From the NCBI GenBank assembly GCA_965205015.1, contig OZ242029.1:4640001-4704000 (forward strand): a DNA stretch of 64,000 nucleotides. Direction: 5' to 3'. Below are positions 17,733-32,065 of the stretch, in pieces. Origin of the DNA: Candidatus Poribacteria bacterium (GTDB lineage Bacteria; Poribacteria; WGA-4E; WGA-3G). Position 1 is the first letter of the stretch. Each line of letters starts with the position of its first letter. The position numbers and the translations under genes are program-made. The notes beneath the pieces were generated by a model, which saw nothing but the letters and a program-made list of their open reading frames with translations, made no database searches and was not told the origin of the DNA.

Positions 17733-18240
17733 GGCAGATTATAAAAACATGTAACGTGAATTCAACATAAGCGCGAAGACATTCAGTGAAACACAATAGA
17801 CGCAGACATCAAAGAGAATTTGGGATTGACAAGCAAAACGACGGAATACTGAATGGATGCTTGGGTCTATGCAAATTTCACAGTAAGCATTTCGGAAAGA
17901 GGCTTTGTTACCCGCGTAGAACCCAGTCGTGGTATGGGTTTAGCGTCGTTTGGGAGACCTTGCACTTTTTGGGGTTTACTGTGAAATTTCTAAATTGTGA
18001 AGTTTGGATTAACATTTGGAAACCCAGTCACAGTGTGGGTTTGTCGCCTATGCAGCGTGTCAATCCATTTTGAGTTTACTGTGAAAATATCTATATGTTA
18101 AAACACGAATAACATAATATGTAATATTTTCATACTTTTCAGTGCAGTTAGGTGAAAGCCCCTACAAGGGAATCGGTTCCGGGTTAGGGGTCTCCGATAA
18201 AAGTGTGCACGTATTTTCAGGCTTTACTATAATTGCGGTT

Positions 18241-20631
18241 TTAGGAGAGTTTCGCTCGGATAGCATTTAAATCAGGTCCCTTTGGCATGATGAACAGGCA
18301 CTGTCCGCCGCTACGAGCCTCCCACAACTCACCAATTTCACGCTTTTCACGGGCATCGTCAGCCGACCAAAGTTGTAGTCCTTTGTATTCAACAACCAGA
18401 TAACGTCCATCGTTTAAAAGACAGACAAAATCAGGATAAAACCTATCGGTTGAAGTCTGGAGCCAGAAGGAGTGTTGAGGTTTGCGTTCAAGATTCCTCA
18501 CCCAAAATTTAACTTCAGGCAACATATCAATGAACTGCGCGCATTGGACTTCTTGACCATCTGACTTCAGATCCCCGACATCGGGGTAGTAATGCTTCTG
18601 GAATTGATAAGGACCTGTATAACGGGTGTTATAGGGATAACGGTGTGGCTCAAAGGAGAAGCAGTGGTCGGGTGAAACCACAATCGGCGTTGCACACTCA
18701 GGCAAGAGAAAGTTTTGATATGCAGCTTGGTGTACGTTTTGGCGATGGTTATCAATCTTCGCCTCAGCAGCATCTTTCAGAGCATACTTATTGCGTATGA
18801 GGATCCCTATTGGAATACCGCGATCTTCAATCAGATACTTGACCAATTGCTGTAGAAAAGGCAAAGACTCCCGCTGTAGAATATCAAGATGTTTAATGGT
18901 TCTATCAAGCCAGTTTGCGAGTTGTGCGGCATCCCAGTTGTCATCCGGTGCGAGAAAAGACATCTGCTGATGAAGTTGACCTAAAAAACGTATTTCTACT
19001 CTTCCTTCTTGAGAAAGACCAACTTCACCACTGGTTCCTGTTGTAAATTCAGATGGAAACTCTTCTTCAGAAAGTTCAGCATCGCATTCGGACAATTGCC
19101 ACACGGTTTCTAAAAATCGTGATGCCTCAAAGTCAATATACGTCTGGTTCCGCTTGACCATCAACTTTGGAACTTTAAAGACTTCACCGCGCGCAGCAGC
19201 GGTAGGCTCAGTATCAGGCTGTGTTGTGTCCTCAACAAACGGTAACTCACCTTGTTGTTCAGCGGCAGGACGGATAAGTTCAGAGGCTGCCTGTTTCTCA
19301 AATCCATTTTGGACAAGCCCATCGGTTAAGGCAGATGCGGCATCATAGAAGTTTTGGGAAGCAACGAAGGCGTAAGCACTATTCAACGATTCTTGCTTTT
19401 TGCGCTGTGCCTTCGGGAGACGCATAATCCTCCCTAATATCTGTTCAACAGCAGTAGAGGATCTCATTTCGGCAACAGAGCAGAGAACGTAGGCAAACGG
19501 ACAATCCCAACCCTCTCGCAACGCCTGCACGGTGATAACGTAGCGAATTTGACACTCTGGATCGTTGATGTCAACATTGTCAAGTCCTCTGTCTTCGCCT
19601 GTAGCACGCGCAATCTGGCATTCAGGAATTCCGTGTTCTTCAATTAGACATTTCTCAACGACTTCAACCGTCAAAGTTTCTCTGGTTTTACTTCTTGGCT
19701 GCGCCTGAATCAGCATAACAGGACGGATATATTCGCCTGTTTCTTGCCGTTCCCTCTCGGCATCCACCTCAAGGGTGTTACGCTGCGCAATGGCAGCATC
19801 AAGCAATCTTTTCCAATCCGGATCGGTCTCCAACTGAATTGGCATCTTGATCATGTCTTCGGCTTGAAGTTCAGCGGCAGAAACAGTATAGAGGACATTG
19901 GAAGGGTTCTGCTCCATATCAGGGGTGGCAGTGAATTCAATGATTGCAGATGGATTGAAGCGGGCGAGTGTTTCAAAAGAGAGTTCGGTTCGGGCATTGT
20001 GTGCCTCGTCAACGATGACAAGCGGACGCTTGACGCATAAAAGATTCGCAAGCGAATAGACAGGCTTACCATCCTCGCGCTCAACCTCCGAGAGGGTCTC
20101 CTCGGGAAGATGCGTGAAATGTCCCATCAACGCACCTGAAGGTTCATACACTTTGCGTCCATCGGTATCCTCAACGCGGAACGCTTGCATCGTGGAGACG
20201 ATAATTGTAGTTTTCGTATTGAGAATATGGGGTGACAGATAGAGCGCATCACCGATGGTGAGGATTTCAACGTTGTGTCTTGCAGACCTAAAAGCGTCTC
20301 TGTAGGGATGATTCGGATTTTTAAGGGCATTGAGCGTCTGATCGCGGATAGCGTTTGAAGGGACAAGCCAGAGGACAATTGGACTCTCCGTCTTTAAGAG
20401 TTCAGATGAGGTGATACTAACCGCATGGCATGCAACGAAGGTCTTACCACCACCTGTAGGCAGTCTGAGACAAACATAGGGCATACCCGGTAAGCCGTCG
20501 ACGAAGGCGTAAGGTCGTTGGGTAAGGTCATAGAATGCAGTGTTAGCGTTTTCGTACTGTAGGCATCTTTGGTAATATTCGGTCAGTGTTTCAAGGGTGC
20601 GTTCTTGGTATTCTTTGAGGGGTAGGTGCAT
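18241..20631 (-). CDS. res: type III restriction endonuclease Res subunit (SF2 helicase plus PD-(D/E)xK nuclease)
   Basis: LPTGGGKT, DEAH, FTATP, LREGWD, QILGRIMR, FYPDF...VVEYKG. Confidence 0.9.
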   Translation of the reverse strand: MHLPLKEYQERTLETLTEYYQRCLQYENANTAFYDLTQRPYAFVDGLPGMPYVCLRLPTGGGKTFVACHAVSITSSELLKTESPIVLWLVPSNAIRDQTLNALKNPNHPYRDAFRSARHNVEILTIGDALYLSPHILNTKTTIIVSTMQAFRVEDTDGRKVYEPSGALMGHFTHLPEETLSEVEREDGKPVYSLANLLCVKRPLVIVDEAHNARTELSFETLARFNPSAIIEFTATPDMEQNPSNVLYTVSAAELQAEDMIKMPIQLETDPDWKRLLDAAIAQRNTLEVDAERERQETGEYIRPVMLIQAQPRSKTRETLTVEVVEKCLIEEHGIPECQIARATGEDRGLDNVDINDPECQIRYVITVQALREGWDCPFAYVLCSVAEMRSSTAVEQILGRIMRLPKAQRKKQESLNSAYAFVASQNFYDAASALTDGLVQNGFEKQAASELIRPAAEQQGELPFVEDTTQPDTEPTAAARGEVFKVPKLMVKRNQTYIDFEASRFLETVWQLSECDAELSEEEFPSEFTTGTSGEVGLSQEGRVEIRFLGQLHQQMSFLAPDDNWDAAQLANWLDRTIKHLDILQRESLPFLQQLVKYLIEDRGIPIGILIRNKYALKDAAEAKIDNHRQNVHQAAYQNFLLPECATPIVVSPDHCFSFEPHRYPYNTRYTGPYQFQKHYYPDVGDLKSDGQEVQCAQFIDMLPEVKFWVRNLERKPQHSFWLQTSTDRFYPDFVCLLNDGRYLVVEYKGLQLWSADDAREKREIGELWEARSGGQCLFIMPKGPDLNAIRAKLS

Positions 20632-20663
20632 CTTTTTGTTTTGATGTTAGAGAAATATTAGAT

Positions 20664-20921
20664 TTATTCATAGACAGATGAACGATGCCCAATCCGGGAG
20701 ACTTCAACTGTTTGATAACACTTATCATAAGTATAGATAATTCGGTAGTCACCAGAAGGTAATTTGAATTTTCCTTTGTAGTTGCCTTTCAGTGCTCTAT
20801 GGGGCCATTGATCGCAATTCTCTCGCAGTAATTTAAGTTTACGGCGAATTTGCCTTCGGATTTTGCCATCCAAACGCTCTAAATCCCCTTCAGCAGCAGG
20901 AGTCAGTATCAATTCATACAT
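20664..20921 (-). CDS. RelE/ParE family toxin
   Basis: 85 aa, basic; YELILTPAAEGDL, GDYRIIY, IGHRSSVYE. Confidence 0.88.
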   Translation of the reverse strand: MYELILTPAAEGDLERLDGKIRRQIRRKLKLLRENCDQWPHRALKGNYKGKFKLPSGDYRIIYTYDKCYQTVEVSRIGHRSSVYE

Positions 20922-22088
20922 TTAGGTTCCTAACCGTTTGGCAACCTCTTCAAGTGTAAACATCTTACCTCCAGACTTGATATACTCGTCCTCGCGTTTG
21001 AGTTCTTCAATGAATTCTGGACGCAATTCCAATCCATCGTCTGGATCGTAATCGTAATTTTCAAGGAACAGTTCCAATTCCAAATAGCACACGAAAAACT
21101 CACAGAACCCACCACGCAGACGCTCCTTTATCTCTATAGTCTGTTTCATTTTCATCAACTGAAGGAGACGTCCTTGCGAGACAAAAAGTCGCCAATTTCC
21201 TAGTGTATGCATCAACGTTCGGAATTCATCAGATGGTAATTCCGTTACCTTTATCTCTGGGGCAGGATCGCCGTGTACGGATAGCCCCATCCGACGAGCC
21301 TCACGTCCGAGAGGCGAGCTTTTCCTTTGTGCTTCAACTGCCGAAACCCGATATTTCAAATGGTCCAAAGTATCGGTCGCCTCTATAATCTCCAGAATGG
21401 GGTTTTCATACTCTTCGAGATCCAAGGCAAGTACATAGTACCCATTGAAGAACTCACGGAACTCTTCTTCAAGTTCGGCGTGAGGAGCATCCTTTGCAAG
21501 CAGCGCGATGAGTCGTTCACGCGATTTAAATATTCCACCATTAATAACAGAAATAAGCCAATCGTTGAATTGCTCTGAATGGATGAAAGTCTCCTCCGTT
21601 TCTGATTCTGAGGGGGTATTTGTTGACTCTAATCTCCCATAATACCTTTGACGCTCTTTTTCAAAAGAACTATCGTTGTATTCTGATAAGGAAAAAATAC
21701 CTTCACTATATCTTCGGTGAACCTTCAACATTTCAAGGCTTTCACCTCCAACAATCAAGGTGTCAGCTTCGCTAACCGTTCTCAAGTGATATGCCAAGTC
21801 TAAAAGGTTCTCTGATGGTATATTATCTGACAAGATATAGCACTCAACAACCTGCTCTCTTTTATTTTTAAACAACTCTTCAAACCGAATTTGCAATTGC
21901 TGCCGGTACTTGGTTGGGAGAGACTCAATTTGTTCAAAGATAGCATTCTGCAATTTGTTTTCTGAATCAACAATTAATAAACCATTTCCTTGAATATCAT
22001 CTAAGAATTCTGCTGTATGCCTCACATAAGCCGGATTAAAATAAGCTGCATTGAATATGGAAGAATCAAGAACTGCACTGATTCGCAT
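20922..22088 (-). CDS. hypothetical protein: unknown N-terminal domain plus antitoxin-like C-terminus
   Basis: abuts relE; acidic tail DPDDGLELRPEFIEEL...TLEEVAKRLG resembles RelE-partner antitoxins. Confidence 0.55.
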   Translation of the reverse strand: MRISAVLDSSIFNAAYFNPAYVRHTAEFLDDIQGNGLLIVDSENKLQNAIFEQIESLPTKYRQQLQIRFEELFKNKREQVVECYILSDNIPSENLLDLAYHLRTVSEADTLIVGGESLEMLKVHRRYSEGIFSLSEYNDSSFEKERQRYYGRLESTNTPSESETEETFIHSEQFNDWLISVINGGIFKSRERLIALLAKDAPHAELEEEFREFFNGYYVLALDLEEYENPILEIIEATDTLDHLKYRVSAVEAQRKSSPLGREARRMGLSVHGDPAPEIKVTELPSDEFRTLMHTLGNWRLFVSQGRLLQLMKMKQTIEIKERLRGGFCEFFVCYLELELFLENYDYDPDDGLELRPEFIEELKREDEYIKSGGKMFTLEEVAKRLGT

Positions 22089-22105
22089 TTACACAACTCC
22101 TTTTA

Positions 22106-23707
22106 CTATCTAAGTTCACGAAGACGTTCTGGAAAAAAACCGTTGGGCCAGCCATCAATAAAATCGCCATCTTCATCAAGACGTAAACGTTCTACTTTTG
22201 CCCCTTCAGGTCTACGACTGACATAGATAACCGATACGTCCTCTGGCTTGATTTCCCTTTTACGGACTAAACGCTGCAGACGCAAAATCAGATGCTCGCT
22301 GTGGGTTTCAATAATGAATCGCTTCCGACTTGATTCCCTGATGACTTCCGCTAAGAGATCACCGAGATCCGCTTGTAATTTCGGATGCACGTGAACTTCA
22401 GGCTGTTCAATAGAGATAATCTGTCCCCCAGGAACCAAACTCTGAACGATAAAAGGGAGGAGTTGACTAATCCCAAAACCGACATCCGGTAGTGCTACAC
22501 TTACGTTTTTTTTTCGACGCGTATCTATGAGTCTCACTACAAAAAGATCCCCTGAAGCAGTTCCAACCGTTTCCACCTCGAGTTTGTAGTCCATATTGAG
22601 TCGGTTTAACCATTGGTTCGCGTCCTGCACTAAGTCAGGACGACGGAAGAGCAGATCTGGAAGCAAATCTCCTCGATATCCGACATTCTGAGGAGTAGTC
22701 CCCCTAAAAGTATACAACCTTTCTGGAGGGGTCCGAAAAGGGCTTATTGGAAAAAGAGTTTCCAATGTTTGTTCCAATGCCTGGCCCGCTACTATAGTAA
22801 GTTGAGCGACATCGAATAGCATCCTATCATATTGTCGACGTAATTGGAAGTACAAGTCTGTTATCGGATTTCTTTTGCGCGACATAATTCCAACTGGAAA
22901 GAAACCTTGTATCCCTAAAACCGTACCCATTTCTTCACCGTGCCGCCTGGAAATGTAGGTTTCCAGATCAAATCCCGGTGAGAAGAATTTAATACCGTCT
23001 TCTAAGGAATTAATCTCTTCCGGAAGACTATCATTATCTTCCCGAAGTTCTTCACTAGAATGTTTCAGAGCATTTAATCTGTCCTTGAGTTGGTTAAGGA
23101 TCTCCTCCTTATTCTTCAAACACCACTTAAACTCTTGTTTCCAATGCTCTGATTCTTTTGTTAACCAGACGCACTTTACGGCTCCTAATTTTGAAATTGA
23201 AACTGGAACCCCACGCGAATCACGGAAAAAGCGTGGCCGCTTTTGAAATTCCCTTGATATTTCAGTTCGATCCAATGGCTTAAATTGAGCGATATGTTTA
23301 GCAGATTTCCCATCGTAAATCCCAATTCCATCTAAAAGGACTTCTTGGTCAGGGGGGGGGCGTTTGAAACTAAATTCAATCGCTATTTTGTCTCCGCTCA
23401 ATGATAGTAGAGACGGATATCTCCTATCTATCGAAGTTTCAACACGAATCGAAAGTGTCCGTTCCAAATCATGGTCGAAAAGCATCTCTGGGAAACTGCC
23501 GAGATCTACAATGTGATTTGGTGTTCGGGCGAGCAGTAAATCCTCAGTATCCCGTCTTTCCAGCGTCTGCTTAAGCAAATAGAGAGCTTGCAGAATTGAA
23601 CTCTTTCCCGCGCTGTTTTCACCAAAAATAAGTGTTATCGGGGCAAATGGAATATGTGCTCGTTCTCCGAACGCTTTGAAATTTTCTAATTCCAGTGAAT
23701 GAAGCAT
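22106..23707 (-). CDS. AAA/ABC-type ATPase with DUF3696-like C-terminus (defence-associated)
   Basis: LENFKAF, GENSAGKS, VGFGISQLLP, IEQPEVHVHP, ETHSEH, WPNGFF. Confidence 0.85.
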   Translation of the reverse strand: MLHSLELENFKAFGERAHIPFAPITLIFGENSAGKSSILQALYLLKQTLERRDTEDLLLARTPNHIVDLGSFPEMLFDHDLERTLSIRVETSIDRRYPSLLSLSGDKIAIEFSFKRPPPDQEVLLDGIGIYDGKSAKHIAQFKPLDRTEISREFQKRPRFFRDSRGVPVSISKLGAVKCVWLTKESEHWKQEFKWCLKNKEEILNQLKDRLNALKHSSEELREDNDSLPEEINSLEDGIKFFSPGFDLETYISRRHGEEMGTVLGIQGFFPVGIMSRKRNPITDLYFQLRRQYDRMLFDVAQLTIVAGQALEQTLETLFPISPFRTPPERLYTFRGTTPQNVGYRGDLLPDLLFRRPDLVQDANQWLNRLNMDYKLEVETVGTASGDLFVVRLIDTRRKKNVSVALPDVGFGISQLLPFIVQSLVPGGQIISIEQPEVHVHPKLQADLGDLLAEVIRESSRKRFIIETHSEHLILRLQRLVRKREIKPEDVSVIYVSRRPEGAKVERLRLDEDGDFIDGWPNGFFPERLRELR

Positions 23708-23737
23708 CAGACTTCTCCTAATTGACTTTCATTCCTC

Positions 23738-23974
23738 CAAGACCTACGCAAATTGCTCAAATATTGGACATTGAGGAGCGAAAAACAGTAATTTCTGTCT
23801 TTTATAGTAAAACCAACAATTAATCAGACACTTTTCCTTTAACAGAAGACTGTTCGTAGGGGCGAGGTCCCCTCGTCCGTCTGTCAAAGTGTGTCTCATT
23901 ATTTTTAGAGGCCACTATAAACCCCCTAAACCCGCTTTATCAGGGGGACTTTAAGATAGAATGCGTAAGTCCTA
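23738..23974. repeat. nested MITE: outer GACCTACGCA...TGCGTAAGTCCTA, inner TTATAGT...ACTATAA (23802-23920), REP hairpin (23856-23878)
   Basis: three levels of inverted repeats visible directly. Confidence 0.6.
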
Positions 23975-24051
23975 TCCTCAGTTTTCTTGGTACTTTAGTA
24001 GTCGTTTGTTTAAGGCACCACCAAACCAGTCTGAGGGATATATTCAAAAGT

Positions 24052-24080
24052 AGTATACGAGATTTAAATGGATTTGTCAA
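24052..24080 (-). promoter_or_regulatory. sigma70 promoter for the ATPase-antitoxin-relE-res unit
   Basis: TTGACA-17nt-TATACT on the minus strand. Confidence 0.65.
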
Positions 24081-24231
24081 TACCATTAACCATTTCCGAC
24101 AGGGTTATTCAATTTTCCGAAATTTTAGATTTTCGGTTCCCGAGGATCTCTGTAGGAGCGAGTTGTGTTCGCGAGGTCTTGGCGAAAACGCCGAAAAAAC
24201 CTACAATTGAATGACCTTGCCATTTCTGATC

Positions 24232-25854
24232 CTATACGAGATTGTAGGGCATTTGGCGGAAGGTGATACCGTGGTGCTTTAAGGTGGCTTCGGTGAGCTG
24301 GGTCCCGCCGCAATGAATAATCTTCATCCCATCATGCCGTGGTAAACGGCTTATGAGTTCCTCAGTGAGGATATCGTCGCTGTTGAGCAGATAAACACCG
24401 ATACCGTCCGCGCTGCCTAAAAAGGCGCGTTGGCGTTTTTCATTGGTAGTGCAAGAACTATACGCTGGCCGATCTCCTTCTACAAGGGATAGCGCGATGT
24501 CCACCGCCATCGGGGTTCCCGTTTCCTTGAAAAAGAGTAACTGTGCCATCTCACTAAACGGAATTTCCTGTTTTTCTGAGAAGGTTTCGCCGACGTGATA
24601 ATAGGAGAAGGTGCCTCCGGTCCCAAATACATTCTGTAGTCTACCCTTCTGCTCATAGGTGTAGCCTTCACTGACACGTTCAAGACGGACAGCCGTAATT
24701 TCACGGGCTATTTTCGGCTCTACCTCAACCAAAATGAAACGCCGACTACCGCCATCCTCACGGTTTTGTTCCATAACCGCGTGTGCCGTTGTACCACTGC
24801 CAGCGAAAGAGTCAAGGATAATGGCATCTTTACTGCGTAGCAATTCCAGCAAAAACTTAATAAATTTTATGGGCTTAGGTTGGGGAAAAACACCCCCTTC
24901 ACCGAATATATCACGAAGTTCACTTGTTCCTTCTTTATTGAACCCTACGATTTCTGGTGAGAGGAATACATCTGGTGGTTGTCCTTCTTGTACCTCAGAG
25001 AGATAGCGTTTTGTCCGCGGTTCGTTCCCAGAAAAATCAATGCGACCTTCGCGTTCCATGCTACGTAGTGTATCTTGCGAATAACTTGGATAACGTCCCG
25101 AAGGGGGAGACCATACAACTCCATTTTCAAAGGTGAACGTGTATGGTGTGTAATAGTTTCGGGCACTGAGTGGATCAAGTTTATACTTACCTCTACCATC
25201 ATTGTCGTCATGAGGATATTTCGTTGATTTATCAGTAATGTAACGAATATACCGACTTTTGTCTTCACCAAACCAAGATTTCTCTTTGGCATAAACCAAG
25301 GTGTAGTCAGCATTGTGATTAAAATCTTTACTGGAGTTACGCACGGTGTGCATTGCTCTTCTTGTGAGAATTGCAAAAAAGTTCTTTTCTCCGAAAATCT
25401 CATCCATTAGCATTCGTAAATGATGCACTTCATTATCATCAATTGAGATAAAGATCACCCCGTCCTCTCGAAGGAGTTGATGAAGGAGGCAGAGGCGGGG
25501 GTACATCATACAGAGCCATTTATCATGTCGAGAGAGATCTTCAGAGAGTTTGCCAACAGTTTTTCCGAGCCATTTCCGGATGGTTGGGTTGTTGACATTA
25601 TCGTTGTAAATCCAATTTTCGTTGCCTGTATTATAAGGCGGATCAATGTAGATGCATTTGACTCTACCAGCATAATAAGGTAGGAGTGCTTTGAGAGCGA
25701 AGAGGTTATCGCCTTCAATAAGCAGATTACCGGTGCCGAGCGGCTCGTTCTCGGCACCTAAGGAGTGATCAGGGTTGTGCGTGAGCGTGTGTATCGGCAC
25801 CTCATCGTGGTGGTTGATGACGGCTTCTTTTCCGATCCAGTTTAGTGTTGGCAT
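24232..25854 (-). CDS. mod: type III R-M adenine DNA methyltransferase Mod
   Basis: LIEGDNL, IYIDPPYNTG, HDKWLCMMYPRL, ISIDDNE, PKP, DSFAGSGTT. Confidence 0.92.
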   Translation of the reverse strand: MPTLNWIGKEAVINHHDEVPIHTLTHNPDHSLGAENEPLGTGNLLIEGDNLFALKALLPYYAGRVKCIYIDPPYNTGNENWIYNDNVNNPTIRKWLGKTVGKLSEDLSRHDKWLCMMYPRLCLLHQLLREDGVIFISIDDNEVHHLRMLMDEIFGEKNFFAILTRRAMHTVRNSSKDFNHNADYTLVYAKEKSWFGEDKSRYIRYITDKSTKYPHDDNDGRGKYKLDPLSARNYYTPYTFTFENGVVWSPPSGRYPSYSQDTLRSMEREGRIDFSGNEPRTKRYLSEVQEGQPPDVFLSPEIVGFNKEGTSELRDIFGEGGVFPQPKPIKFIKFLLELLRSKDAIILDSFAGSGTTAHAVMEQNREDGGSRRFILVEVEPKIAREITAVRLERVSEGYTYEQKGRLQNVFGTGGTFSYYHVGETFSEKQEIPFSEMAQLLFFKETGTPMAVDIALSLVEGDRPAYSSCTTNEKRQRAFLGSADGIGVYLLNSDDILTEELISRLPRHDGMKIIHCGGTQLTEATLKHHGITFRQMPYNLV

Positions 25855-25905
25855 GTATGCCCTATCTCCAAGATTCCTTTTTGGATTATGTCATGACAAA
25901 ACGAG

Positions 25906-26054
25906 TTAGTGCTTCCACTTTGAGAGTTGATCTTTGCTGAGGTTATGTCGGCGACACACTTCCGTTTGTGAACTTTCACCACTGAGCGTCTCAAGAACAA
26001 CTGACGCTTTAAACTCGGTGGTGAATCTTCTGCGTTTGGCCAGCTGGCAGTACA
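25906..26054 (-). pseudogene. IS3-family OrfA (HTH) transposase remnant
   Basis: KRRRFTTEFKASVVLE...EVCRRHNLS..QLSKWK, preceded by an IR-like TGTACTGCC. Confidence 0.7.
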
Positions 26055-26090
26055 CAAAATGTAATGTTTCATAGCCTGAAATTGGGATTG

Positions 26091-27533
26091 CTAAGTTTTT
26101 ATGAGGACTGTTGGAACATAAGCATTTGGTGAAGTCCACTCATAACATTGAATTTTCCCTATGGTATTCAGGCGATGTCCTAGGAAAAGGGCAAACTGTG
26201 CAGGTCCTGCGAAGAAAAGATGGATTTTTTTTGCTTGTGATTTGCTAACAAATTCTTGAATCATTGATTTTGCTTTTTGCACCGCTCGATTTGTTTGAGC
26301 ATCGGATTGGAGAACCATATCACTATACAAGTAAAGTTGTCTGCCATGGAAATGCTCCATTTGCAAGTACTGTTTTACTTCTTCATTGGCAGTGTTTTTC
26401 AAGATAGAAATTCCCACTGCTATTTCATCTGTTAATTCTCCTTCCGTAGACTGCTGCCAATGATAATCTGGTGTATCTTCGTTTGCATGGCTGTTAGTCC
26501 ACCAAACTTCATCTCTAACTTCCATACCAATCGCAAAACCAGAGACTGCGGAAAAGATTGAGCCAATGGCAATAGACGCGGATAATCTACGATGTCCACT
26601 CAAGTAAATACGTCGCTCTCGATTTGTTGAAACTATCCAGTCCTTCGTCCGGCAGAGTTCGCCAATGACCTTCTCGCTCCATTCTTCTGGTGGAGGAAAG
26701 TGACGTTCAGAACCACCAAAAAAACGCGTCCAGTTAAACTGGAGACAACCGTCGGGTACTTTATTGAGACTTTCATCGTACAAGGTGTGGATTCTGATAG
26801 TAGATTCAGGTCTATCTTCTTCTGGCACTTCCTGCCAAATTGCTTTTTCCAGCTCAGGTCTATAGATAGGCTGGTTCTTTCGGGATGAAATCAATTCCAC
26901 TAAGCATGAGTACGCGTCACTACTTATTTTCACAGGAAAATTCTCAAAATTTGGAAAATGATTTAACAGAACTTCCCTGAAAAGTTCTCGAGGAAAATCT
27001 TCGGCATCGGTCAAATCAATTTTAAAGTGTACTTTTGAAAACAGAAAGTCAGCCATCTCTTTTGATTTACCATGTCTTTTCACTCTATCGACAAAATCAT
27101 TATATGATGTGTCTTGTATCTGTTTTGACCCATTATAAAAAGGAAAGGCATCTCGAATTCGGTCCAAAGCGTTTGTAATCGGTTTTAACCCGCCGGAAAT
27201 TGATGTACAAGCCAACACAAACCGTTGATAGGAATCTGGAGCGTGCTTGTCCTTTTCCCAAAAATTTTCTACTTCTTCCCAAAATTCTGTGGGCTGTAGA
27301 AGATGGTTCTTATACTCAACGAACTCGCAAGTCAAGCCGACATTAGGAATGAAAAACTTTGCTTCAACATCACCGAGAGATTCACGAATCATCTCGGTGA
27401 ATCCATCTTCCGCGAGCCAACTTGGTATTTGAGCGGTAATTAAGTTGGCTTGGTACCTGAAACCACCTTCTGCGATATCACCACCAGTGGCTTGAGATGC
27501 TAACAAAGACCCGCTACTGTGTTTCTGGCTCAA
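26091..27533 (-). CDS. cap4: CBASS effector: Cap4-like PD-(D/E)xK endonuclease plus C-terminal SAVED domain
   Basis: GGDIAEGGFRYQ, GDVE...FVEYK; SAVED tail IHLFFAGPAQFALFLGHRLN...QCYE..Y; TTG start with GGAG RBS overlaps cap3 TGA (ORF is open to 27560). Confidence 0.85.
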   Translation of the reverse strand: MSQKHSSGSLLASQATGGDIAEGGFRYQANLITAQIPSWLAEDGFTEMIRESLGDVEAKFFIPNVGLTCEFVEYKNHLLQPTEFWEEVENFWEKDKHAPDSYQRFVLACTSISGGLKPITNALDRIRDAFPFYNGSKQIQDTSYNDFVDRVKRHGKSKEMADFLFSKVHFKIDLTDAEDFPRELFREVLLNHFPNFENFPVKISSDAYSCLVELISSRKNQPIYRPELEKAIWQEVPEEDRPESTIRIHTLYDESLNKVPDGCLQFNWTRFFGGSERHFPPPEEWSEKVIGELCRTKDWIVSTNRERRIYLSGHRRLSASIAIGSIFSAVSGFAIGMEVRDEVWWTNSHANEDTPDYHWQQSTEGELTDEIAVGISILKNTANEEVKQYLQMEHFHGRQLYLYSDMVLQSDAQTNRAVQKAKSMIQEFVSKSQAKKIHLFFAGPAQFALFLGHRLNTIGKIQCYEWTSPNAYVPTVLIKT

Positions 27534-28000
27534 ATTATTTTCTCCGTAATTAGTTGGCATTTGAAAAATTTACCATCTTTGAGAAAAATTGTTACTGTTC
27601 CTTCAATTTTCTGTTCACCTTTAAGTTGCACAATAAGCAAGATAACAAAATTCGCACCAGTATCAGGATCAGTTACAATTTCCTGCATTGACTGAATATC
27701 CTTCTGACTCGGCACTAGCGGAAATGAAGGATGTGAATGCCACTCTCCAAGATAGTTAAATTTTCCATAGTTATATCCCGTCCGTTTAAAGAATCCCTTC
27801 AATGGTTTAACAATATCTACCACTAAGCGGACAAAAAACGCAACGCTGCCAAACTGTTCCTGAATAGTCAAATCAACAATACAGAATTCCGATTCGGCAA
27901 TATGTTCTCCCATAAGGACACCACCGATTTCCTGATTACCAGCTCTTTCGAGAGCAGGGATAAGTTTCTTTTGGATGTCAGTCGGTAGATGAATTTTCAT
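27530..28000 (-). CDS. cap3: CBASS Cap3 JAB/MPN isopeptidase
   Basis: EIGGVLMG, YLGEWHSHP...PSQKD. Confidence 0.9.
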   Translation of the reverse strand: MKIHLPTDIQKKLIPALERAGNQEIGGVLMGEHIAESEFCIVDLTIQEQFGSVAFFVRLVVDIVKPLKGFFKRTGYNYGKFNYLGEWHSHPSFPLVPSQKDIQSMQEIVTDPDTGANFVILLIVQLKGEQKIEGTVTIFLKDGKFFKCQLITEKII

Positions 28001-29723
28001 TTTTCTGCTTCAGAATCAGTTGTGCTATGAAGTCGCGGTTTTCATTGATTTTATCCTCTGAAAATTCTGATTCAGTGAAGGCAGATTGGACTTCTGGAAG
28101 ATTTATGGGAATGGTGTGGAACGGCTGATCAAAAATCCAGCCTCGACTGAGTCCAATCAAATATAGAGAATAAGGAAAATCTGATGGTTCACGTTCAATT
28201 AAGATATCCAGTGCCATTCGAGTGGCATTTGCCGCGATGAGAGTAACATCCGCATCACTCGCCACAATAGTTTCTCCATCACTGTTAATTGTCGTATAAT
28301 CGACAGTTTCTTGTATTTCTGGTAGTTCTAGTTTTTCAAGATATTTGTGAAAAGCAGCACGGGTTATTTGCGGATCTGGATCCTCGTTAGGACGGAATCG
28401 GGCTATCATTCCGCCAATGCCTCCAGCGTAGATTTTAAGCCAAATTATGGGTTTTACCTGCTGGCTTGCGACAGTTGACAATTGATTAAGAGTACAGGGG
28501 TCAGCCGTCGCATCAATGATGAGATCACAGGCACCAAGTTGAGAAAGCATACTATCAACAGTCGCAGTGGCTTCTTGTCCCGACAGTTTGACAGGGGAAC
28601 ATTTCACACTAATATCTTGAGCAATAAGTTTTAATTGATGGGCAATTCCATCAATTTTGTGTTGCCCTACGTCTGCCCAATTGAGTTCATGGCGACAGAT
28701 ATTTTCTTCAAGAAACACGTCATCATCAACGAGAAGGAAATTGCGTACCCCAGTTCGTGCAAGAGAAACGGCAATTTTACTGCCAGCCGATCCAAGTCCA
28801 ACAATTCCAACCGTTTTTGTACTAAGATTGATAAACTCTGGTAGAAGGCGAGGGGTTTCTTCTGTGCTATTGATATCCACTTGAGCAAACCGACTCCATT
28901 CTTTTTCATTTGAAGTCAAAAACAAGTGGAGTCCCTCACTGACATCAATGATTAGTGCAAGACAAGTTGATGAAGATTTAAGTTGTGAGACGTCATGATT
29001 TTGTGCTTCAAGAACGTCAAAGGGTGATTCCAATGGTTGAGATTTCAAAACCTCGGCTTCCAAAGTAGTTTTGAAGAAGTGGCCTTCAATTTGACTAGTG
29101 GTTTTTTCTAATTCTGGAAGCAGTGCAGGATGACACCATTTTTCGCCATTGAGAGGAGAAAAACTCGCTATGAAGGCAACTACACTTTTTCGAGAGAGCA
29201 TCACGTTAAACTGGACAGTTCCCGATTTTTTCCTTGGGAGCGATTGTGTATAAGATATAAGAGACGCATCAACAATAAATCGCAAATAGTTAGTTCTCAA
29301 TTCCTGCCCAGGTGTCAGCAAGTGTCTGGAAGGTGCTTCTATTAGTCTTGAATTCTCTTCTGTCTGGCTCTCAATCTCTAGAAGTTTATGGGCACTGATA
29401 AGCATATCAGCACCAGTAATTTCCTCATGCCAGGTGTCAGGTCCCCACTCAAGACAAAGTTCACCGGAACGGTACTGATGTGTTGACCAAGACTGATTTG
29501 ATTCGCGCGGACGTACAGTTGGCGGACTGGCAGGATAATTAGTCGGGTAAAGCATGATTACCGAATAGCAGCGTCCAAGTACTTCAATATCGGCAACGAG
29601 ACCTAATGTAGGGTCACTATCCAATTTCCAGTCTGCTGAGAGCAGCCAGTCCACCTCAGAATGCAATGTGGTGATTGCTTCTCGTTCTTTATCCAATCTC
29701 GCCAAATTTTTCAGGAACCACAT
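27978..29723 (-). CDS. cap2: CBASS Cap2 E2-E1 (ThiF) fusion
   Basis: E2 part YPTNYPASPP...HQYRSGELCL; ThiF part VGLGSAGS, LVDDD, NICRH, IIDATA. Confidence 0.88.
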   Translation of the reverse strand: MWFLKNLARLDKEREAITTLHSEVDWLLSADWKLDSDPTLGLVADIEVLGRCYSVIMLYPTNYPASPPTVRPRESNQSWSTHQYRSGELCLEWGPDTWHEEITGADMLISAHKLLEIESQTEENSRLIEAPSRHLLTPGQELRTNYLRFIVDASLISYTQSLPRKKSGTVQFNVMLSRKSVVAFIASFSPLNGEKWCHPALLPELEKTTSQIEGHFFKTTLEAEVLKSQPLESPFDVLEAQNHDVSQLKSSSTCLALIIDVSEGLHLFLTSNEKEWSRFAQVDINSTEETPRLLPEFINLSTKTVGIVGLGSAGSKIAVSLARTGVRNFLLVDDDVFLEENICRHELNWADVGQHKIDGIAHQLKLIAQDISVKCSPVKLSGQEATATVDSMLSQLGACDLIIDATADPCTLNQLSTVASQQVKPIIWLKIYAGGIGGMIARFRPNEDPDPQITRAAFHKYLEKLELPEIQETVDYTTINSDGETIVASDADVTLIAANATRMALDILIEREPSDFPYSLYLIGLSRGWIFDQPFHTIPINLPEVQSAFTESEFSEDKINENRDFIAQLILKQKNENSSTD

Positions 29724-30718
29724 CAGGCAAATCCTTTAGGTTCTTTCGGAACGATTGGTTCGTTTGGAAAAGTAGGCGATGATAGTGTTCCTGGCGCGGC
29801 CAACAGACTTTCCGACTTTGTTCCTGCTGTTTCACGGAACCGATTACCAAAAATTTTTCTCCATAGCTTTGTCGCTTCCTCTGGGTCAGTCTCGTTCAGA
29901 GCTTTTCGACCAAGCTCGGCATGAGACTCTGCTTTATTATAAAAGCCGATGAACGCATTAACAGTTATGCCATCAGTGACGAAATTACCAGGGACTGCAG
30001 GATCTGGAATATTAGGAACGTTCTCTAAGAGGAAATTAATCTTGTATTTTTCAACAATTTCCTCCAAGGTTTTGACAAATAATTCGCCATAATAGGTTTC
30101 CTCATAGTCCATGCACTCAGCGGTAATACACTCAATAACAAACCCTTTGGGCTTTTTAGAAACTGTTGGATTTTCACGTCGCCACCACTTCCCTAACTTA
30201 ACTAATGGTTTGAAGCGTCCGCCGGCTGTTTCATTGGTTTCGATCGTCCAAGTTGTATGCCCTGGTGGATTGGTTGAGAGCCAACACTCCTGTTTTCTAT
30301 CAGGAATGAGGTACATTTCTCCATCTGGTATAATTGGGACAACGTCCATGTCAGCTTTAGAAGATTCAATACCGACAGACCGCGCCTGTTTGCGGATATT
30401 GGAATACTTTTTTTTCAGGGTTTTGTAGAGCAAGTCGACAACTTCTTTTGGATCATCATAGGAAGTATGGTTTGTCACCACGATAATATCGACATCAGGG
30501 CGATTAGTCTGCCCGTTTTTTGTACGAGGACGAATTGCTGTATCTCGTTTATAGGACCCTGACAGAAAAGTATTCACGTGATATTCTTTGAAGTCTTCAT
30601 CATCTTTAAGAAAATCACGTAATTCAGTGTGAGCGGAAGAGGCGTTACTTTTGGTTGTGGGACTCGGTTCAATGTCACTCAAAAATTCAGTAAACCGGGC
30701 TTGTGGGATTGTTGGCAT
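29723..30718 (-). CDS. cGAS/DncV-like nucleotidyltransferase (CD-NTase)
   Basis: [32 protein letters not shown]; tail KGFA; AGGAG RBS. Confidence 0.92.
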
Positions 30719-30884
30719 GGTTTCTTCTCCTTTGTTAGAAGACCTTATGGAATCAAGTATTCTCCGGGCGAGGATGTCCAAACTGAAATTTGTTTCTGGA
30801 GTGTTGTCTTACGCAAATCAATACCTCTAAAGAGGATAAAACACTGAGATAGGGCAAGATTAAATCACTTAATTATCAAGGCAA

Positions 30885-30945: not shown

Positions 30946-32065
30946 GAGGGTGGTGCATAAATAAAGTTGTGGAGTATCAGGATAATGGGTATGCTTTAAT
31001 GAAACCACCCATATAAGGCATACCCGATGTATTATCCTGACAGAAAAGAGTATATCACATTTTTGTTTTCTTTACTTGATGAGTTTGCTGAGAAGAAACA
31101 AACGCTTCTCAGCAGAGGGAGACCCAAAACGTATTCAGATGCTGCCTTGATCGTCTTTTATGCCATGATGACACTGAAGCAGATAAACACGGCTCGCGGG
31201 CAGCACCGCTGGTTATACACGCATCCACTCATGCTTGAGACGCTACGATTGTGGGTGTGTCCATCGCGTTCGACGCTCTCACGCCGATATAAGCAACTGT
31301 TTCCACTTCTCAGTGAGTTTTGTGAGTTTATCGCCGATTGGGCAGTTTCACACGGATATGGTTTTTCACATACCCGCGTCTATGAAGATAAGAGTTTGTT
31401 CAAGGCACACGGGCGCGTCTGGCACAAGAAGGATCGTGTGAAAAATCATATTCCCAAAGGACTTTGCAATGTCGATAAGGCCGCAAACGGGTCGAAAAGT
31501 GCTTATCACGGATGGGTCTATGGATACGGACTTCATCTGACGACGACGCGACACGGATTTCCCGTGATGTGTGATGTCATGCCTGCCAACGTCAATGAAC
31601 GTAAAGTGCTTGATAAGAAGCAATCTCGTCTGGTGGCTAAAGGCGTGCGGTGTCTTATCGCCGATGCTGGCTATAGAGATAAAAACCGCACCACTGACTT
31701 TGCTAAAAGGCAAGTTCTGCTGGTAACACCTGATATCTGTCTCGAACAAGTAGCCTTGATGTTTGGAGGTATGGATGCTATGGCAATCGCAGTTTTCGAA
31801 GAGGCGAAAGCCTGTCGAAAAACCGCAATTGAACCCGCATTTGACTTACTCAGTAAACTCTTAGCAACCACCGGAGCGCATAAACCTTTGCCCGTCAGCG
31901 GCTTGGCATGTGTGGCTACATTCTTAGGGCTTGGCACCGTAATTTTACAACTCGCAATGTTGATCAATATCGCAATGTTGATCAATATTAGGTGTGGACT
32001 TCCCACACGAAATGTCACGCACATCAAAACCGTTTTTCAGTAAAAAGAATTTATGCACCACCCTC
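30946..32065 (+). mobile_element. insertion sequence (DDE, IS982/IS5-like), 1120 bp
   Basis: 17-bp perfect IR GAGGGTGGTGCATAAAT; 8-bp target duplication ATTTAATT (30938-30945 and 32066-32073). Confidence 0.92.
31027..32043 (+). CDS. DDE transposase
   Basis: PSRSTLSRR, GWVYGYGLHL, ADAGY, RKTAIEP. Confidence 0.88.
   Translation: MYYPDRKEYITFLFSLLDEFAEKKQTLLSRGRPKTYSDAALIVFYAMMTLKQINTARGQHRWLYTHPLMLETLRLWVCPSRSTLSRRYKQLFPLLSEFCEFIADWAVSHGYGFSHTRVYEDKSLFKAHGRVWHKKDRVKNHIPKGLCNVDKAANGSKSAYHGWVYGYGLHLTTTRHGFPVMCDVMPANVNERKVLDKKQSRLVAKGVRCLIADAGYRDKNRTTDFAKRQVLLVTPDICLEQVALMFGGMDAMAIAVFEEAKACRKTAIEPAFDLLSKLLATTGAHKPLPVSGLACVATFLGLGTVILQLAMLINIAMLINIRCGLPTRNVTHIKTVFQ

Follow-up and report, generated by a model that had tools for sequence, protein, structure and literature searches.

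The window analysed here is a 64,000-nucleotide stretch of contig OZ242029.1 from a Candidatus Poribacteria bacterium, and all coordinates given are positions in this window. It contains five minus-strand genes in the order type III restriction-modification (R-M) methyltransferase (mod), ABC ATPase, a 388-amino-acid (aa) protein (P0001), RelE toxin and type III restriction subunit (res). The three genes from the ATPase to RelE, referred to here as the cassette, are the subject of this report. A sequence-only reading of this DNA had described them as tightly packed, co-oriented genes that part mod from res, and this arrangement is borne out by the positions listed below. The gaps are 17 nucleotides between the ATPase and 388-aa genes, 0 between the 388-aa gene and RelE, and 32 between RelE and res, and the short distance to the res start makes co-transcription of res likely. 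The type III R-M system is complete in the window, with both the Mod methyltransferase and the Res helicase-nuclease identified by PADLOC. The features of the locus, in the direction of the genes, are as follows.

24232-25854, minus strand: type III R-M methyltransferase (mod), 540 aa; PADLOC PDLC03644 MTase_III, E 6.4e-152 over positions 1-539 of 542; Pfam N6_N4_Mtase, E 4.8e-35
24052-24080, minus strand: sigma-70-like promoter motif TTGACA-17-TATACT, 5' of the ATPase gene; conserved in relatives
23798-23975, no strand assigned: dispersed short repeat of ~180 bp, resembling a miniature inverted-repeat transposable element; blastn copies, contig depth and contig breaks
22106-23707, minus strand: NsnB/HEC-03-class ABC ATPase with a DUF3696 C-terminal helix, 533 aa; Pfam, PADLOC and motifs
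20922-22088, minus strand: 388-aa protein (P0001), whole open reading frame (ORF); without Pfam, PADLOC or NCBIfam match
21609-22088, minus strand: residues 1-160 of the 388-aa protein, a predicted inactive-PIN-like anchor domain (NsnC-N type); phmmer, AlphaFold2 (AF2) model and fold search
21405-21584, minus strand: residues 169-228 of the 388-aa protein, 60-aa helical repeat, copy 1, where the antitoxin part starts; hhalign, predicted local distance difference test (pLDDT) 86-96
21051-21239, minus strand: residues 284-346 of the 388-aa protein, helical repeat, copy 2; hhalign, pLDDT 86-95
20925-21050, minus strand: residues 347-388 of the 388-aa protein, C-terminal tail, presumed to bind the toxin; strong constraint, PF09720 matches in relatives
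20664-20921, minus strand: RelE/ParE-superfamily toxin, 85 aa; PF05016 and TIGR02385
18241-20631, minus strand: type III R-M restriction subunit (res), 796 aa; PADLOC PDLC03650 REase_III, E 2.1e-148; Pfam ResIII, E 6.3e-16

Judged by its profile matches and motifs, the ATPase is a member of the NsnB/HEC-03 class. Pfam recognizes AAA_15 (E 4.5e-26), AAA_21 (E 1.9e-18) and DUF3696 (PF12476; 25.5 bits, cut-off 22), and the best PADLOC model is HEC-03B (E 1.5e-58), followed by NsnB (E 2.3e-55) and PDC-M55A (E 2.6e-55). The PADLOC match to AriA (E 3.2e-29) and that to GajA are far weaker than those to HEC-03 and NsnB. Four motifs are invariant in 42 homologs: the Walker A motif G29-E-N-S-A-G-K35-S36; the Walker B motif I431-S-I-E434-Q435-P-E, which ends in E-Q; G410-x-G412, in place of the ABC signature motif; and the H-loop histidine H469. 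The deviations described for NsnB in the main text of Li et al. (NAR 2025, PMC12065111) are E-N for D-E and G-x-G for S-G-G.

The 388-aa protein has no Pfam, PADLOC or NCBIfam match, even at E 10. In a word-indexed search, approximately half of the relatives listed extend over the whole protein (384-395 aa), while the other half are proteins of 224-278 aa that span only 56-66% of the query and align to residues ~166-388. An exhaustive phmmer search matched residues 1-178 to the first ~178 residues of many 315-350-aa proteins with unlike C-termini. The protein had been called chimeric from its sequence, and it is indeed so, as its N- and C-parts match separate protein sets.

The AF2 model of the N-domain, built from 87 homologs, is a five-stranded alpha/beta domain (pLDDT 89.3, predicted template modelling score 0.85). 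In a fold search with VIA-align, the top matches are almost all PIN domains (Z 8.2 to 5.1), led by HARP RNase P (Z 8.2, root-mean-square deviation 4.0, 127 aligned residues) and followed by archaeal PINs, VapC toxins, SMG5 and others, with 37 chains at Z of at least 5. For comparison, inPIN11 of Li et al. scored Z 5.8 against a PIN domain, and the inPIN families are described there as very diverse (PMC12065111). According to this model, residues 1 to ~165 are a PIN-like fold homologous to the N-terminal anchor of NsnC-like effectors. No PADLOC model matched the 32 N-domain relatives at E of up to 0.01 or P0001 at E of up to 10, and profile searches of the N-domain and C-part alignments against Protein Data Bank (PDB) sequences gave nothing below E 0.2. 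A complex prediction of the full ATPase with the N-domain scored 0.00 against a mark of 0.32; run with one ATPase copy, whereas the published models are tetramers, it weighs neither for nor against docking.

Three acidic positions of the N-domain are conserved among the 87 homologs: D8 (78% acidic), D41 (97%) and D109 (97%). The last of these precedes strand 4, and no conserved acid follows strand 3 or 4, which we take to be the canonical positions of PIN catalytic residues 3 and 4. This pattern fits an inactive PIN anchor of the NsnC type. The PIN domain could instead be an active nuclease effector, as proposed for the PIN of HEC-03, to which the fused antitoxin and RelE would add only addiction or regulation. 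The three conserved acids and the description of the HEC-03 PIN as VapC-like (Payne et al., bioRxiv 10.1101/2024.01.29.577857) favour such a role, but the missing acids after strands 3 and 4 count against it, as do the 35 NsnC-N families, all of which are described in PMC12065111 as lacking the PIN catalytic set. In addition, split relatives of the protein (see below) carry a separate C-terminal effector domain that is more constrained, with a ratio of nonsynonymous to synonymous substitution rates (dN/dS) of 0.19. An active PIN effector is therefore improbable.

Residues ~166-388 correspond in full to a 233-aa antitoxin common in Poribacteria, where this family was matched in 98 of 175 genomes, with up to eight matches in a single genome. 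The C-part is helical and contains two repeat units (169-228 and 284-346; hhalign 98.5%, E 3.6e-15). No confident fold match was obtained for it, the best (Z 5.6) lying within helical noise, and a search of the ESM Atlas with residues 166-388 gave no usable match. The C-terminal tail, residues 347-388, is the most constrained stretch (dN/dS 0.095). The antitoxin family PF09720 (Unstab_antitox) matches this tail in 4 of 42 relatives (best E 1.5e-5, 25.4 bits, cut-off 23.3), one of them above the cut-off. RelE follows the antitoxin part directly in the window and in 20 of 26 evaluable loci, including the diverged paralog pairs L021 and L022. The toxin itself is readily recognized (PF05016, E 3.2e-10; TIGR02385 RelE_StbE, 31 bits, cut-off 27.9), with PDB relatives 2khe (E 3.6e-6) and 9g12 RelE (E 1e-4). 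The motifs Y-R-I-I-Y and R-S-S-V-Y are conserved in 19 of 20 RelE orthologs, as are R60, R80 and Y84, presumably the equivalents of R61, R81 and Y87 in E. coli RelE.

Related loci were mapped by tblastn and ORF calling in 24 genome loci and in three more from a survey of the phylum (L035-L037). Most lie at one chromosomal hotspot of the Poribacteria, flanked by glutaminyl- and glutamyl-tRNA synthetase and DegT aminotransferase genes on one side and by a sulfatase gene on the other; it extends over ~15100-37400 in the window, and the same site is occupied in L001-L020 and L035-L037. The content of the hotspot varies by genome and includes the cyclic-oligonucleotide-based anti-phage signalling system (CBASS), type III R-M, the ATPase module, toxin-antitoxin (TA) pairs, a DUF262 and HNH pair, and transposases. 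The fused trio of ATPase, 384-394-aa protein and RelE is complete in 11 loci (the window, L001, L002, L004, L005, L006, L008, L020, L035, L036 and L037), while in L003 the fused locus is cut by the contig end. A split form is found in L007, L011, L012, L015 and L016, where the ATPase gene is followed by a 325-356-aa NsnC-like protein, a 227-239-aa antitoxin, and then RelE or nothing; the NsnC-like gene of L009 has an internal deletion. No intact ATPase is present in L010, L013, L014, L017, L018, L019, L021 and L022, which have the antitoxin, mostly with RelE, and in L010 and L017 ATPase stubs of 53-54 residues are left.

The C-termini of the NsnC-like relatives carry motifs such as F-H-A-R-Y-L-E and R-G-F-D-L-F. 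In this region, three of 32 homologs match MIT_C, a phospholipase D (PLD)-like domain, with scores that stay under the Pfam cut-off, and one of 32 matches the BrxL C-terminus. An effector of this kind is termed PB-PLD1 by Li et al. (PMC12065111).

The fusion itself can be read in the alignment. The fused proteins track the NsnC-like sequence as far as S-E-x-E-x-x-x-I-(R/H)-S and then continue as the N-terminus of the 233-aa antitoxin. A short motif, I-x-S-x-x-F-x-x-W, is common to both parents at the junction, where it reads I-H-S-x-x-F-x-x-W in the window. A maximum-likelihood tree of the N-domain places all 11 fused copies in a single clade (support 100/100) that lies within the Poribacteria split forms. 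This single origin is most simply explained by one in-frame deletion that took out the PLD-like domain together with the intergenic spacer and the antitoxin's first residues, leaving the PIN anchor fused to the rest of the antitoxin. Identity of the fused C-part is 73-75% to the stand-alone antitoxin of the hotspot and only 41-55% to paralogs elsewhere, which identifies the resident antitoxin as the donor. The ancestral order, as suggested by sister genomes that keep it at the same site, was probably ATPase, PIN plus PLD-like effector, 233-aa antitoxin and RelE. Because the arrangements before (PIN plus PLD-like domain, separate antitoxin and RelE) and after (PIN-antitoxin, RelE) occur at the same site, a natural effector exchange can be followed here step by step.

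The fused trio is under purifying selection, and by the same comparison of sequences its PIN domain has clearly not drifted since the fusion. Median dN/dS values, obtained by pairwise Nei-Gojobori comparison and rough with dS near 1, are 0.27 for the fused N-domain, 0.16 for the fused C-part, 0.20 for the ATPase and 0.24 for RelE across eight loci (28 pairs each). With all 11 fused loci the N-domain value is 0.25 (54 of 55 pairs), and in five split loci (10 pairs) the values are 0.33 for the N-domain and 0.19 for the PLD-like domain. No frameshift or stop was found in the 11 fused genome copies. RelE is intact in all 11 fused loci and lost in 5 of 12 non-fused hotspot loci (Fisher p 0.037), a difference that is suggestive only, since the fused loci are one clade and their counts are not independent. 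Internal deletions of RelE that leave its first or last codons are found at L007:8600-8690, L012:9650-9736 and L017:8709-8770, and the remnants include a stub that reads M..ELILT and then RSSVYGRNLIFL, as well as an antitoxin with ...RSSAYE at its end. Loss of the toxin has occurred several times, with the antitoxin kept.

These observations bear on the main rival explanation, according to which the fusion was accidental, the 388-aa protein works solely as antitoxin to RelE in a conventional addiction pair that keeps the island stable, and the ATPase and PIN domain are leftovers or unrelated. The many deletion products at the hotspot, including the shortened NsnC-like gene of L009, the ATPase stubs of L010 and L017 and the deleted RelE genes of L007, L012 and L017, would be expected from such decay, and the 233-aa antitoxin stands alone with RelE in L013, L014, L018, L019, L021 and L022. 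However, ATPase and PIN domain are intact and constrained in 11 of 11 fused loci (dN/dS 0.20 and 0.25, dS near 1), and the PIN domain is no less constrained there than in the split loci and free of frameshifts and stops. We consider an accidental fusion unlikely on balance.

The position of the cassette between mod and res had suggested, in the sequence-only reading, a guard of R-M integrity in which RelE would be freed once the ATPase detects anti-restriction proteins or the loss of the type III enzyme. A search for the trio with and without type III R-M, which had been proposed as a check, shows that the trio recurs and does so in both settings: 7 of the 11 complete fused trios lie between mod and res, while for the remaining four (L008, L035, L036 and L037) neither gene of a type III system is present within about 8 kb, and they stand directly after tRNA-synthetase genes, adjoining a transposase or decarboxylase gene. 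The split forms also lie between mod and res, which together with the likely co-transcription of res agrees with a guard. Similar associations are described elsewhere: 27.9% of Menshen operons adjoin BREX (bacteriophage exclusion), R-M systems or methylases (PMC12065111), and HEC systems were found embedded in Hma (bioRxiv 10.1101/2024.01.29.577857). According to the latter source, however, embedding is common for many unrelated defence genes. The module is independent of R-M in the four trios that live without a type III system, and the guard idea is not supported for this reason.

Metagenomic relatives point in the same direction. When metagenome contigs were scanned with aligned distant NsnC-like proteins, 22 loci were recovered, in 20 of which a homolog of the ATPase (30-55% identity) directly precedes the NsnC-like gene. 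Their neighbours were scanned against Pfam for 62 of 133 ORFs, ATPases and ORFs of less than about 100 aa being left out. No full NsnA was found among these 62 ORFs; the only trace was a 136-aa DUF262 fragment in L043, beside insertion-sequence fragments. Among 13 metagenome loci with scanned upstream neighbours, only L038 lies next to an R-M system, and this system is of type I; L048 adjoins a KwaB-like gene, and the remaining scanned neighbours are housekeeping genes. The pairing of ATPase and NsnC-like protein without NsnA and mostly among housekeeping genes indicates that the ancestral unit was a self-standing two-gene module of ATPase and PIN-anchored effector. With these neighbours and the four R-M-less trios, a dedicated R-M guard is very improbable. 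In L038 (L038:209-6996), the ATPase and NsnC-like pair directly follows the C-terminal part of a type I hsdR gene, hsdM and hsdS, so that this module also accompanies an R-M system of a different type.

The Poribacteria loci likewise lack NsnA next to the ATPase: no DUF262 gene adjoins it in any of the 17 loci with an ATPase, and in four of five relatives' genomes the DUF262 genes that are present lie megabases from the locus. The possibility that an NsnA remnant is hidden in the 524-bp gap between mod and the ATPase gene was rejected, the gap being occupied by the promoter motif and the repeat element. At L019:5314-6872, a 429-aa DUF262 (GmrSD_N) protein and a 90-aa HNH protein are encoded upstream of a truncated mod (307 aa). 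This locus carries the antitoxin, RelE and res, but no ATPase.

We propose, with about even confidence, that the cassette is a derived member of a class defined by an ABC ATPase with a DUF3696 tail and a PIN-anchored effector, and that its ATPase controls RelE through the PIN-antitoxin protein as an adaptor. In this model, the DUF3696 helices of an ATPase oligomer would grip the PIN domain, as predicted for NsnB and NsnC, and the antitoxin tail would hold RelE inactive. A phage cue sensed by the ATPase would cause an ATP-dependent rearrangement that releases or destabilises the adaptor, and the freed RelE would cleave mRNA on the ribosome, arresting translation in the infected cell. The earlier suggestion that the ATPase acts through its partner on the toxin is consistent with this scheme, and its logic fits that of Menshen NsnB-NsnC and HEC-03, with PARIS as an analogue. 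More tentatively, and with somewhat less than even confidence, we suggest that a defence ATPase took over a resident TA pair. The antitoxin would then be an adaptor that places a free-standing RelE under ATPase control, release would be ATP-driven instead of depending on antitoxin proteolysis, and TA pairs would be a reservoir of plug-in effectors for ATPase-based immunity.

Several points weigh against the proposed adaptor. The binding of the ATPase to the fused protein and that of the tail to RelE are both predictions. The PIN matches have middling Z scores (8.2 or lower), and Foldseek gave no match for the N-domain at E of 0.001 or below. The tail of P0001 has no Pfam match of its own, PF09720 being reached in only the 4 of 42 relatives mentioned above. 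The PLD-like label of the lost effector domain is tentative, as the sequence matches behind it are weak. The dN/dS values are rough, and the RelE counts come from a single clade. Orphan antitoxins without RelE in five loci imply that the antitoxin has a value of its own, and a hotspot rich in deletions (L009, L010, L017) means that the fusion could have begun as decay.

Among described systems, the closest is Menshen (NsnA-NsnB-NsnC), dissected by Li et al. (PMC12065111). Both systems have an NsnB-like ATPase with an ABC fold, a DUF3696 tail, a Walker B glutamate followed by an amide residue, and G-x-G, and in both the partner protein starts with an inactive-PIN-like domain. Menshen effectors are often RelE-superfamily (BECR) RNases, like the RelE of the cassette, and Menshen often adjoins type III R-M, as the cassette does. 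In the main text of that paper, NsnB tetramers are modelled as clamping the PIN domain of NsnC between two DUF3696 helices, a prediction, and Septu and PARIS serve as the analogy for a proposal that the binding or hydrolysis of ATP regulates or releases the effector. The two differ upstream, where Menshen has NsnA (ParB-DUF262 plus ParBDB) ahead of NsnB and the cassette has a type III mod. They also differ in the effector, which in Menshen is a nuclease fused to the PIN domain, whereas here an antitoxin (residues 166-388) is fused and RelE is a separate gene.

HEC-03 is described by Payne et al. (bioRxiv 10.1101/2024.01.29.577857) as an ABC ATPase and a PIN-domain protein that together defend when embedded in Hma, both genes being needed. 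The cassette shares this two-gene architecture embedded in an R-M-like system, and HEC-03B is the best PADLOC model for its ATPase. In contrast to HEC-03, its host is type III R-M rather than Hma, it has an antitoxin and RelE in addition, and its PIN partner matches no PADLOC model of HEC-03. Type II TA systems with a PF09720 antitoxin and a PF05016 toxin share with it the toxin family, the antitoxin-first order with adjoining or overlapping genes, and a C-terminal tail for which relatives reach PF09720. However, the antitoxin here is 233 aa long even alone, with two helical repeats, and in the cassette it is preceded by a 165-aa PIN-like domain behind an ATPase gene.

Two more distant comparisons were made. 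PARIS also has an ABC ATPase that keeps hold of an effector, whose release by a trigger is proposed, but the cassette lacks a DUF4435/Toprim AriB, and its ATPase family and docking surface differ. Membership in PARIS was rejected, given that the AriB domain is absent by Pfam and PADLOC and the AriA match is the weaker one. PrrC, nested in the EcoprrI type I R-M operon, is likewise a toxic RNase module within an R-M locus. PrrC is a single ATPase-nuclease protein silenced by the R-M enzyme itself. Here, 4 of 11 trios have no R-M nearby, and a PrrC-like single-protein guard was rejected.

The label of an undescribed module, as first applied to the cassette, did not hold for its parts, because both its ATPase and its PIN-like N-domain fall within the NsnB/NsnC and HEC-03 class. 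Defence genes embedded in R-M, NsnB/HEC-03 ATPases, PIN-anchored effectors and RelE-superfamily effectors are already described. A PIN-antitoxin fusion that recruits a separately encoded toxin is a different matter: no description of one was found in the literature on DUF3696, Menshen/NsnB and HEC-03, supplements aside. The word antitoxin has three mentions in the main text of PMC12065111, and at least two of them concern no such form.

The sequence-only reading had also assigned the cassette a promoter of its own. The motif TTGACA-17-TATACT at 24080-24052 is the best promoter match within 18000-26300 (11 of 12 positions). Promoter-like sites as a whole are not above chance (15, versus 13.6 with a standard deviation of 3.8 in shuffled sequence). 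However, 7 of 11 aligned loci retain both hexamers between mod and the ATPase gene, and two further loci have TTGACA with a variant -10 box; in the remaining two, L004 and L006, the motif is absent and the spacer differs. This conservation across loci makes the site more than a chance match, and it is, as a predicted promoter, a conserved promoter-like site belonging to the cassette.

The ~180-bp repeat at 23798-23975 sits between this motif and the ATPase start. Further blastn copies occur elsewhere and in the opposite orientation in L016, L005, L007, L012 and L020. Metagenome contigs over the repeat have a summed depth in the thousands and break at ~23801 and ~23975, and the repeat is abundant in an RNA library too. 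Contigs from metatranscriptome library X22 match 23526-23848, spanning the ATPase start and in part the dispersed repeat, at an identity of at least 99%. These are a weak hint of transcription only, as contigs from an RNA library are no proof of it. Joints in run X6 that pass over RelE or the spacer, with a likeness of 90%, may stem from other strains and were left out of account.

The surroundings of mod contain further defence genes. A 76-aa ORF (25842-26072, minus strand) overlaps the mod start by 13 nucleotides and is 89% identical in L015. No family match was found for it, and a stretch 50% identical to it adjoins a DUF262 gene in another Poribacteria genome (L030). This ORF may encode a small regulator of the R-M system. 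A complete type II CBASS lies directly upstream of mod (26091-30781, minus strand), in which PADLOC recognizes the cyclase (E 5e-146), an E1-E2 protein (E 5e-188), a JAB protein (E 7e-63) and a SAVED-endonuclease effector (E 9e-82). Since it adjoins mod, the R-M system and the embedded cassette belong to a larger defence island. At the island edge, between CBASS and the DegT aminotransferase gene, is a DDE transposase gene (31027-32043, plus strand; PF13612, E 1e-7).

The Menshen/HEC-03 class is known for swaps of effector domains, but only as covalent C-terminal fusions. If the proposed role of the PIN-antitoxin protein is true, tethering through an antitoxin would be a third way to couple a toxin to a sensor, and type II TA biology would be linked directly to ATPase-triggered abortive infection. 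The split and fused forms of the Poribacteria offer a clean experimental pair for work on the cue of the DUF3696 ATPase and on its control over the partner protein.

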